Source of the DNA: Acutalibacteraceae bacterium
GTDB taxonomy: Bacteria; Bacillota; Clostridia; Oscillospirales; Acutalibacteraceae
Assembly (NCBI GenBank): GCA_045536195.1
Contig: JAZSNB010000118.1
Coordinates: 247-64,246, forward strand
DNA length: 64,000 nt
Reading direction: 5' to 3'
The notes beneath the pieces were generated by a model that saw nothing but the letters and a program-made list of their open reading frames with translations, was not told where the DNA came from and searched no databases. Made by a program: the position numbers and the translations under genes. Within the stretch, counting starts at the first letter, position 1; each line of letters opens with the position of its first letter. This document shows positions 26,200 through 28,698 of the stretch, piece after piece.

Positions 26200-28698
26200 T
26201 TATGCTGTTTCAATTGAGTCAGCCTTCTGAAGTCCGAATTTTTCTATGGCATCCTCTCTCATTTTATATTTGAGAATCTTTCCTGCTGCGTTCATCGGGA
26301 AGGCATCCACAAAGTCTACATACTTCGGAACCTTATGCTTTGCCATATGAGAACGCACATAATCCTTCATTTCGGCTTCAGTCATGCTCTCCTCTTCTTT
26401 AAGGATAACGCAAGCCATAATTTCTTCACCCATTGCTTCATCGGGCACACCAATGACCTGCACATCGCTTACCTTAGGATGAGTATAAATAAATTCTTCA
26501 ATTTCCTTGGGATAAATATTCTCACCGCCGCGGATAATCATATCCTTGAGTCTGCCGGTGATTCTGAAATTACCTTCAGGTGTTCTGCAGGCAAGATCTC
26601 CCGTATGAAGCCAGCCGTCTTTGTCAATAGCAGAGGCTGTTGCCTTGGGCATCTTATAATAGCCCTTCATAATATTATATCCTCTTGCAACAAATTCACC
26701 GGTCACATTATCGGGGCATTCCTCTCCTGTTTCGGGATCAACTATCTTGCATTCAATTTCGGGCAGAGCTCTTCCGACTGTAGAAACTCTTACTTCAAGG
26801 GAATCGTCGGTGCTGCTCATAGTACAGCCCGGAGAAGACTCCGTCTGACCGTATACTATGGTTATTTCCTTCATGTTCATTTTGTCAACAACGTCCTGCA
26901 TAACACTTATGGGACAGGGTGAGCCTGCCATAATACCCGTACGCATATATGAAAAGTCGGTCTTCGGGAAATCTTCGTGGCCTAAAAGTGCAATAAACAT
27001 TGTAGGCACACCGTGAAATGCAGTTATTTTTTCATTATTGATACAGGCGAGTGCCGGCTTCGGTGAGAAATAAGGAAGCGGCATAAGAGTTGCACCGTGT
27101 GTCATAGATGCCGTCATTGCAAGTACCATTCCGAAGCAATGGAACATCGGCACCTGAATCATCATACGGTCTGCTGTGGACAGATCCATTCTGTCACCGA
27201 TGCATTTACCGTTATTTACAACATTATGATGAGTAAGCATAACACCCTTGGGGAAGCCTGTTGTTCCCGAGGTATACTGCATATTGCATACATCGTCTTT
27301 ATCGACCTGTGAAGCATATCTGTAAACCTCTTCCACGGGAACGCTCTTTCCTTTTTCGGAGGCCTCTTCCCAGGTCATGGCACCTTCCATTGTAAAGCCG
27401 CAGGTAATAACATTTCTTAAAAACGGCAGACGCTTTGCGTGAAGAGCCTCACCCGAGCGTGTATTTTTAAGCTCAGGACAAAGCTCCTGTACGATTGCGG
27501 CATAATTTGAATCGCGGTATGAATCGATCATAATAAGAGTATGTGTATCAGACTGTCTGAAAAGATACTCTGCTTCGTGAATTTTATATGCCGTATTTAC
27601 CGTTACAAGAACCGCACCGATTTTTGCTGCTGCCCAGAATGAAATATACCACTGAGGAATGTTTGTTGCCCACACAGCAATATGCGTACCGGGACGGACA
27701 CCAAGAGCAATAAGGCTTCTTGCAAAATTATCAACATCATCCCTGAACTGGGAATATGTTCTTGTGTAGTCAAGAGTTGTATATTTGAAAGCAAGCTGGT
27801 CGGGGAAGGCTTCACATTGAGCGTCAAGCACCTGAGAAAAGGTCTTATCAATAAGCTGTTCCTTTTTCCATATAAACTTACCGTCACCCTTTTTATTGCG
27901 GTAGAAGTGCTTTTTGTTTTTCTTTGGATTTCCGTATACATTCATATGAGATTCAAAGAATGTGAGAATAACCTCAAAATCATCAATTTCGGGAAGCCAC
28001 TCACGGCTCCACTCAATTGCAACAAAGCCGTTGTAGTTTACGGAACGAAGAGCATTGATCATTTCGGAAACGGGAAGAGTTCCCTCTCCGATAAGAACGG
28101 GATTGCCCTCGGCATCGGCATCATTTATTTTTACCGATTTTACATAAGCTCCGAGATTCTTAATGGTGGTTTCGGCATCTTCCTTTGAGATAAAATATGT
28201 GGCGTACATATTCCACTGAGCACCGAGATAATCACTTGCAAATGCCTGAAGAAGCCCGCAGGCTGCATCAGAACATGCAAATGCTCCGTCGGTTTCAATA
28301 AGAATTACAACATTTTTTTCTTTTGCAAAGGGTAACACTGCACGAAGAAATTCTTCTGCAGCATCTTTGTCCGAGGCAGCATATGCCTTAACAAAACTGA
28401 CTCCGATATCCGAAGCAGTCTTTATTATTTCTTCTGCTTTTCTTACGTTTTCGGAAAAATTATCTTTATCATCAATATCAAAAGGAAAATCAAGCTGAGA
28501 AACAGCTATTCCTGAATTGAGAATCTTACGGCGCGTTGAAAAAACACCTGCTTCTGAAAATGAGGCCTTTTCCCCGCCGAAGCATTCATCGTAAATATTA
28601 TATACTTCAACCGCATTGAACTTCTGCTGCTTAGCCAGTGTAAGATATTCGGAAAGTGACATTGCGGGCATATATCTTGTTGAAAATGAAAGTTTCAT
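26200..28698 (-). CDS. Fusion protein: xylose-isomerase-like TIM barrel (AP endonuclease 2 family) + FadD-type AMP-dependent acyl-CoA ligase
   Basis: 832 aa. The N-terminal about 255 aa look like a sugar-phosphate isomerase/epimerase barrel (VILIETDG..., FVAIEWSREW). The C-terminal part has YTSGTTGFPKGVMLTHHN, WLHTGDLACRTPEGNFRITGRLKDMIIRGGENIYPKEIEE and AAGKILKYKMR. Its ATG overlaps the upstream stop (TAATG). Confidence 0.85.
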   Translation of the reverse strand: MKLSFSTRYMPAMSLSEYLTLAKQQKFNAVEVYNIYDECFGGEKASFSEAGVFSTRRKILNSGIAVSQLDFPFDIDDKDNFSENVRKAEEIIKTASDIGVSFVKAYAASDKDAAEEFLRAVLPFAKEKNVVILIETDGAFACSDAACGLLQAFASDYLGAQWNMYATYFISKEDAETTIKNLGAYVKSVKINDADAEGNPVLIGEGTLPVSEMINALRSVNYNGFVAIEWSREWLPEIDDFEVILTFFESHMNVYGNPKKNKKHFYRNKKGDGKFIWKKEQLIDKTFSQVLDAQCEAFPDQLAFKYTTLDYTRTYSQFRDDVDNFARSLIALGVRPGTHIAVWATNIPQWYISFWAAAKIGAVLVTVNTAYKIHEAEYLFRQSDTHTLIMIDSYRDSNYAAIVQELCPELKNTRSGEALHAKRLPFLRNVITCGFTMEGAMTWEEASEKGKSVPVEEVYRYASQVDKDDVCNMQYTSGTTGFPKGVMLTHHNVVNNGKCIGDRMDLSTADRMMIQVPMFHCFGMVLAMTASMTHGATLMPLPYFSPKPALACINNEKITAFHGVPTMFIALLGHEDFPKTDFSYMRTGIMAGSPCPISVMQDVVDKMNMKEITIVYGQTESSPGCTMSSTDDSLEVRVSTVGRALPEIECKIVDPETGEECPDNVTGEFVARGYNIMKGYYKMPKATASAIDKDGWLHTGDLACRTPEGNFRITGRLKDMIIRGGENIYPKEIEEFIYTHPKVSDVQVIGVPDEAMGEEIMACVILKEEESMTEAEMKDYVRSHMAKHKVPKYVDFVDAFPMNAAGKILKYKMREDAIEKFGLQKADSIETA

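Follow-up and report, generated by a model that had tools for sequence, protein, structure and literature searches.

Anaerobic bacteria of the rumen and gut need branched short-chain fatty acids and convert isovalerate to leucine, as has been known since the 1960s, and Allison and co-workers reportedly found that rumen bacteria incorporate isovalerate into leucine. In petrobactin biosynthesis, a xylose-isomerase-like barrel (AsbF) and an adenylate-forming enzyme (AsbC) that handle the same carboxylic acid are encoded by one operon. In Staphylococcus aureus, the ligase MbcS acts on 2-methylbutyrate and isobutyrate, whereas isovalerate is a poor substrate (PMC10026030). Here, we describe a gene from an Acutalibacteraceae bacterium whose product combines these two kinds of domain in one chain. 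The gene is located at 26200..28698 (-) in a stretch of 64,000 nucleotides (nt) of contig JAZSNB010000118.1, hereafter called the window, and encodes P0001, a protein of 832 amino acids (aa) with an ATG start that is composed of a TIM barrel, a linker and an acyl-coenzyme A (CoA) ligase. We propose that it functions as an acid:CoA ligase for short branched chains, most likely specific for isovalerate, and that it would serve to rebuild leucine by reductive carboxylation; for this reading as a whole, we put the chances at about even.

A preliminary description, made from the sequence of the window, had reported a single 832-aa open reading frame joining a barrel of about 255 aa to a complete ligase, had quoted motifs of the ligase part and had not recognised the architecture as that of any characterised enzyme. 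All this was borne out. The N-terminal xylose-isomerase-like barrel (aa 1-255; 27934..28698, (-)) is detected by Pfam as AP_endonuc_2 (PF01261, aa 56-237) with 49.9 bits for a cut-off of 31.1, its relatives reaching 93-128 bits. The linker that follows (aa 256-291; 27826..27933, (-)) carries the motif N..TGKF(I/V)WKK..LI..TF.QVLD, which alignment shows to be family-wide and which leads into the ligase. The ligase part (aa 276-832) is a complete adenylate-forming enzyme. Its AMP-binding N-terminal domain (PF00501, aa 292-681; 26656..27825, (-)) contains YTSGTTGFPKG, YGQTE and TGD and scores 314.1 bits against a gathering threshold of 29.9, while its C-terminal domain (PF13193, aa 732-807; 26278..26505, (-)) scores 72.5 bits against 24.5 and ends in the catalytic Lys of PMNAAGK. 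The quoted motifs YTSGTTGFPKG, GDLACRTPEGNFRITGRLKD and PMNAAGK are all present in the translation, as are all the ANL core motifs: A3 (YTSGTTGFPKG, for the pattern (S/T)GTTGxPKG), A5 (VYGQTES, for YGxTE), A7 (HTGDLA, for TGD), the A8 hinge (TGRLKD, for GRxKD) and A10 (PMNAAGK, for PxxxxGK). Across the class Clostridia, identity amounts to 69-83% in the ligase domain versus 26-42% in the barrel; judging from these sequences, the ligase is intact and highly constrained. The best NCBIfam match of the fusion is NF009233 (PRK12583), over aa 279-823 with 697.7 bits, and the MbcS equivalog NF047394 is not among the 25 best NCBIfam families for P0001. No characterised example of the barrel-ligase fusion turned up in the literature searched, and matches in the protein atlas were limited to generic 'sugar phosphate isomerase/epimerase' clusters scoring at most 0.87.

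A sequencing or assembly frameshift that joined two separate genes, an artefact that had been raised together with the fusion itself, has a negligible probability. We compared Logan contigs from four public gut metagenomes, belonging to four studies, with positions 26200-30450 of the window. Contigs of all four metagenomes cross the junction between barrel and ligase (about 27830-27940) and show only substitutions there; the only indels relative to the window, at 30142 and 30208, are located in the leader, outside the fusion gene. Furthermore, the same combination of three Pfam domains recurs in more than 120 protein clusters of 67-97% identity, and the linker motif is conserved. When the barrel alone (aa 1-275) was used as query, 206 of the 399 scored genomes of the class, distributed over 111 genera, gave a match, nearly always within an open frame of 820-880 aa. 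Four independent metagenome assemblies spanning the junction and the same fused frame in about 200 genomes thus rule out an artefact. The architecture is common, with about one in two of the sampled Clostridia genomes carrying it, and gut metagenomes from cattle, sheep and other sources contain the fusion sequence. No RNA dataset was shown to contain the locus, in a search that was not aimed at RNA. In a sample of the phylum (200 genomes plus that of the window), 18 of the 201 genomes matched the barrel, about half of them with fused genes and about half with stand-alone genes of about 275 aa. In P0183, a metagenomic fragment of 577 aa, an HMGL-like match at aa 4-129 comes before the C-terminal half of a barrel and a ligase, which may indicate a chimera or a hybrid of LeuA-like protein and barrel.

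The fusion gene is preceded by a gene related to leuA (28698..30101, (-)), which encodes 467 aa from M58 of a longer open reading frame and includes an HMGL-like barrel and a LeuA_dimer domain. Its stop codon overlaps the start codon of the fusion gene (TAATG), with GAGGAG located 8 nt before the ATG, in agreement with the translational coupling proposed in the preliminary description. Control by a leucine T-box, which had also been proposed, is supported as well. The leader (30192..30434, (-)) matches the full T-box model RF00230 (1-219) with 90.0 bits (E 1.2e-19) for a gathering score of 93, carries the conserved T-box sequence GGGUGGUACCGCG and has CUC, a Leu specifier, in the Stem I loop (30342-30344), with G as the next base. 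A second T-box (25888..26129, (-); 90.6 bits, E 1.9e-20) is located between the fusion and the next ligase gene and heads an operon encoding this ligase, Vor and IlvE. Both T-boxes were missed at the Rfam gathering threshold in a scan of the whole window and were found with E-value thresholds; orthologous leaders score 94.9-128.5 bits. The T-boxes lying immediately before the fusion, or before the pair formed by the LeuA-like gene and the fusion, were read in nine genomes, and all nine have a Leu specifier, CUC in the window and in loci L041, L043, L049, L052, L053, L055 and L056 and CUU in L050. T-boxes located before the MbcS-like ligase read differently: AUC (Ile) in L041, where the element is the counterpart of the second T-box of the window, and probably GUA (Val) in L042 (2345-2604), where the T-box is followed by the MbcS-like ligase, the LeuA-like gene and the fusion. 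At position 30142, between the end of the upstream T-box of the window (30192) and the start of the LeuA-like gene (30101), all four metagenome assemblies have one base fewer, which may be due to strain variation or to a homopolymer error in the sequence of the window.

Downstream of the fusion, a block of partner genes (19256..25838, (-)), identified with Pfam and NCBIfam, encodes a helix-turn-helix (HTH)-cupin-MbcS-like ligase (P0003; 23571-25838, (-)), whose best NCBIfam match is MbcS (NF047394), a ParA-like ATPase (22909-23565, (-)), VorB, VorA and VorC (20330-22691, (-)) and IlvE (19256-20317, (-)). The same gene set adjoins the fusion in other families. Comparison of 16-kb neighbourhoods from 20 genomes of different families distinguished two types of context. 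In type A, which includes 27 of the 30 best loci, that of the window among them, the LeuA-like gene is directly upstream of the fusion. It is often accompanied by genes for IlvE, the ParA-like ATPase, VorB/A/C, an XRE-cupin protein and the MbcS-like ligase, i.e. the set of the window in the same or a permuted order. As in the window, the fusion lies beside IlvE, the ParA-like gene, VorBAC and the MbcS-like ligase in L041-L046, L048 and L059. In type B, a fusion of 843 aa stands alone, and the genes downstream of it show no relationship from one locus to the next and so add no clue; a T-box precedes six of nine type B genes. No T-box was found in six further loci. The ParA/CbiA-like P-loop ATPase (22909-23565, (-) in the window) is located beside VorB in every cluster examined, with 44-59% identity across families. 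In L043, from the same family, an Amidohydro_2 gene (PF04909; 8472-9320, (+)) overlaps the end of the fusion and constitutes a third member of the Leu T-box operon; no Amidohydro_2 gene is found at that position in the window.

The fusion co-occurs with VorB (NF005507), which was found in 293 of the 399 genomes of the class. Among the 30 family tallies listed, the fusion is no more frequent than VorB in 29, the exception being f18, represented by one genome of 83% completeness. No fusion was found in the eight families devoid of VorB (27 genomes) and, in the family to which the window belongs, both are present in the same three genomes out of eight. These data bear on the possibility that the ligase activates an unrelated medium-chain, long-chain or aromatic acid and has only an indirect link with leucine regulation. 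The NCBIfam and PDB neighbours of the ligase would suit such a role, since they are generic (fatty-acyl, feruloyl and malonyl-CoA synthetases), and so would the type B genes, alone among unrelated neighbours. However, the Leu specifiers in nine of the nine leaders read, the repeated clustering with VorBAC and IlvE and the co-occurrence with VorB all argue against it, and we consider it improbable.

No leuA, leuB or leuC gene was found above cut-off in the organism's own genome, which is 96.9% complete. More generally, canonical LeuA (E<=1e-120) is absent from 24 of the 26 sampled genomes with a type A pair and present in 7 of 11 type B genomes. Since carriers of the pair mostly lack canonical LeuA, they need a leucine source. 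The sole LeuA-like sequence of the genome is the gene adjoining the fusion, and it scores only 265.8 bits in NCBIfam, far below the LeuA equivalog cut-off of 532. In an alignment of ten LeuA-like proteins with two canonical LeuA, all ten have lost the Asp of DTTLRDGEQ and both His of HxHNDxG, and all ten entirely lack the 'HESGIHQHG' subdomain (subdomain I). The best-conserved part of these proteins is the C-terminal LeuA_dimer regulatory domain, including GDGP(I/V)DA, and this conservation suggests that the domain may still bind leucine. Loss of the metal ligands together with retention of the regulatory domain points to a possible role in leucine feedback.

The barrel domain has a conserved fold, as expected from the preliminary description. 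An AlphaFold2 model of aa 1-275, built from an alignment of 68 sequences, shows eight beta/alpha units (pLDDT 93.7, pTM 0.90), with low pLDDT (62-76) for aa 251-275. While a search of the PDB with the sequence of the barrel alone gave only marginal matches (E >= 6e-4), Foldseek found 324 PDB matches at E<=1e-3, among them UlaE (3CQJ, TM 0.79) and ketose 3-epimerases (TM 0.75-0.79, E ~1e-13). The profile of the family matches the Art22 isomerase, the AsbF dehydratase and IolI (E 3e-24 to 9e-18), and its 'ET', 'WD.HH', 'H.KD' and 'EW' motifs align with the metal-ligand motifs of these three proteins. No NCBIfam equivalog fits these barrels: their best scores are 24-61 bits for cut-offs of 200-350, and this protein stays below a quarter of the cut-off. 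The metal site, for which a structure prediction had been suggested, is only partly preserved. In the model, the four ligand positions do lie at the C-terminal ends of consecutive strands (131-135, 158-163, 186-191 and 225-228), but two of the four Glu-Asp-His-Glu (E-D-H-E) ligands of strands 4-7 are replaced, giving E135-N163-K190-E229 with Asn163 for Asp and Lys190 for His. Furthermore, the His-His pair is Tyr-Ala and K192 is Asn. Among 121 homologues of >=67% identity, only 12 retain E-D-H-E and in 109 the Asp is replaced by Asn; the His column contains H (87), K (13), S (8), Q (7), L (4), I (1) and G (1), varying between K, S, L, I and G even inside the clade of the query (>=82% identity). 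Other loci of the same taxonomic family have other lesions, E-N-H-E in L041 and E-D-H-I in L043 and L015. Since the His column drifts and the lesions differ, the canonical metal site is no longer maintained by selection in this lineage, whereas the domain as a whole has stayed intact. In P0001, the barrel is probably a non-catalytic structural or interaction module and not an isomerase.

The preliminary description had considered that the barrel might carry out an isomerisation or epimerisation coupled to the ligase. In such a two-step enzyme, the barrel would be an active isomerase, epimerase or dehydratase acting on the acid used by the ligase or on a related 2-oxoacid. Several features of the wider family are consistent with this: E-D-H-E as well as E31, W162, K192, D193 and W230 are near-invariant despite an overall identity of 25-40%, the closest solved structures to the family profile include an isomerase and a dehydratase (Art22 and AsbF, beside IolI), and AsbF offers a precedent, as it makes an acid that is then activated by an adenylating enzyme in petrobactin synthesis. 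Moreover, barrel and ligase are also encoded by neighbouring separate genes, with either of the two coming first. In L071 (4284-6813), the gene for a ligase of 564 aa, 58% identical to the ligase domain of the fusion, precedes that for a stand-alone barrel of 270 aa, with 22 nt between them. In L060 (3767-8575), genes with overlapping ends encode an amidohydrolase, a class IV aminotransferase (280 aa), a barrel (271 aa) with E-D-H-E and a different AMP-binding ligase (578 aa), so that this locus represents a second association of barrel, ligase and aminotransferase. Apart from these two pairs, stand-alone barrels occur in mixed contexts. A search of five genomes of the class that have VorB and lack the fusion gave no close orthologue of the ligase without a barrel. 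Split pairs and an intact site in the wider family thus indicate that the barrel has a real partner role. For P0001, however, Asn163 and Lys190, Tyr-Ala instead of His-His, Asn instead of K192 and the scarcity of E-D-H-E and drift of the His column in its own clade all speak against catalysis; in addition, the conversion of isovalerate to leucine has no isomerase step, and the leucine precursors have no stereocentre at C3. In most relatives, the barrel resembles a functional metalloenzyme whose role is linked to the ligase, whereas that of this organism has the appearance of a pseudoenzyme. A coupled isomerisation is therefore unlikely here and finds no support for this protein, but it may occur in the wider family.

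These observations can be assembled into the following route. Uncharged tRNA-Leu would induce production of the fusion through the T-box, here as in many other lineages, and its ligase would convert isovalerate to isovaleryl-CoA. VorBAC, a 2-oxoisovalerate-type ferredoxin oxidoreductase (VOR), would then produce 4-methyl-2-oxopentanoate by reductive carboxylation, which IlvE would transaminate to leucine. As the organism lacks the isopropylmalate pathway, this route would be its way to leucine. The barrel, from a ligase-associated xylose-isomerase-like subfamily whose E-D-H-E has decayed to E-N-K-E here, would act as a non-catalytic module, and the co-translated LeuA-like protein, presumably catalytically dead, could plausibly provide leucine feedback on the ligase. 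Because MbcS uses isovalerate poorly (PMC10026030), isovalerate would be left for a second ligase, and the simplest reading is that a distinct, leucine-controlled ligase exists for this acid. In the literature searched, nothing pertinent was found on bacterial isovalerate-CoA ligases or on links between T-boxes and acyl-CoA synthetases.

The same genes could serve another purpose, namely the supply of isovaleryl-CoA or another branched acyl-CoA as primer for branched-chain fatty acids, for which MbcS is a precedent (PMC10026030). IlvE and VOR could run oxidatively to the same acyl-CoAs, and leucine shortage would deplete iso-odd primers. However, T-box control by uncharged tRNA is typical of genes for amino acid supply, and the predicted induction of the operon set when amino acids are scarce fits synthesis and not catabolism. 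Furthermore, carriers of the LeuA-like pair need a source of leucine since most lack LeuA, and the putatively dead LeuA retains a leucine-type regulatory domain. A primer-supplying function therefore seems doubtful.

Several points nevertheless weigh against isovalerate activation for leucine synthesis. Substrate specificity is not readable from sequence, and AMP-forming activation combined with VOR could also feed the synthesis of branched-chain primers. The fusion does not reach the curated cut-off of NF009233 (697.7 for 832 bits), a model that itself describes only a generic 'fatty acid CoA ligase family'. About six genomes that carry the fusion have, by eye, no VorB match, and searches gave no T-box for four large type A operons of other families (L044, L046, L047 and L048), all of which encode a separate XRE-cupin protein. 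Lastly, in a set of 51 sequences from other families and from stand-alone genes, which comprises type A, type B and stand-alone barrels, 47 keep E-D-H-E; this wide conservation of the intact site, together with the split pairs, implies that the barrel normally does chemistry that the plain route from isovalerate to leucine does not require.

Beyond the proposed leucine route, a less likely possibility is that the barrel-ligase protein and the dead LeuA form a leucine-sensing complex. The LeuA relic would be an allosteric subunit that stops isovalerate activation when leucine is sufficient and the decaying barrel a docking module. If this were true, two pseudoenzymes would have been recruited to regulate one ligase. 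Independently of this, the intact barrels of the wider family would perform a reaction tied to the activation of branched acids. Elsewhere in the window, far from the fusion, a glmS ribozyme (61308-61442, (-); 65.4 bits) is located upstream of a 607-aa open reading frame (59435-61258).

In the literature searched, the acid-activating enzyme of the route from isovalerate to leucine has no assigned gene, and the fusion gene is a candidate for it. The locus also offers two possible cases of transition from enzyme to pseudoenzyme, the dead LeuA and the decaying barrel, and defines a large family of ligase-associated barrels. Since the fusion is found in about half of the sampled Clostridia, with a leucine riboswitch and with oxidoreductase and transaminase genes as neighbours, the question can be directly tested with one protein.

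The partner protein resembles 2-isopropylmalate synthase LeuA in its end-to-end similarity, HMGL-like barrel and LeuA_dimer domain and is under a Leu T-box; unlike LeuA, it has neither the Asp/His/His ligands nor subdomain I and scores far under the equivalog cut-offs. The N-terminal domain shares the TIM-barrel fold (TM 0.75-0.79) with UlaE (3CQJ), D-tagatose/D-psicose 3-epimerases, Art22 (8Z1I), AsbF (3DX5) and IolI (1I60), and the E/D/H/E columns align; it differs from them by its low identity (13-21%), by Asn and Lys at two ligand positions and by its fusion to a ligase. AsbF and AsbC, in contrast with the fusion, are separate proteins that act on an aromatic substrate in a siderophore pathway, with no T-box or link to leucine. 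The ligase part is matched over its full length (aa 279-823) by the NF009233/PRK12583 group, which we take to be that of Bacillus subtilis YngI and human ACSF2, and has all the core adenylation and thioester motifs, whereas its score below the cut-off, the 255-aa TIM barrel, the conserved linker and the Leu T-box set it apart. Lastly, MbcS of S. aureus is, like the proposed function of the fusion ligase, an AMP-forming enzyme that uses short branched acids from the environment, and a homologue of it is encoded next door by the ligase part of P0003; unlike the fusion, MbcS is poor with isovalerate, feeds fatty acid synthesis, has no barrel and belongs to another ligase subfamily (~25% identity).

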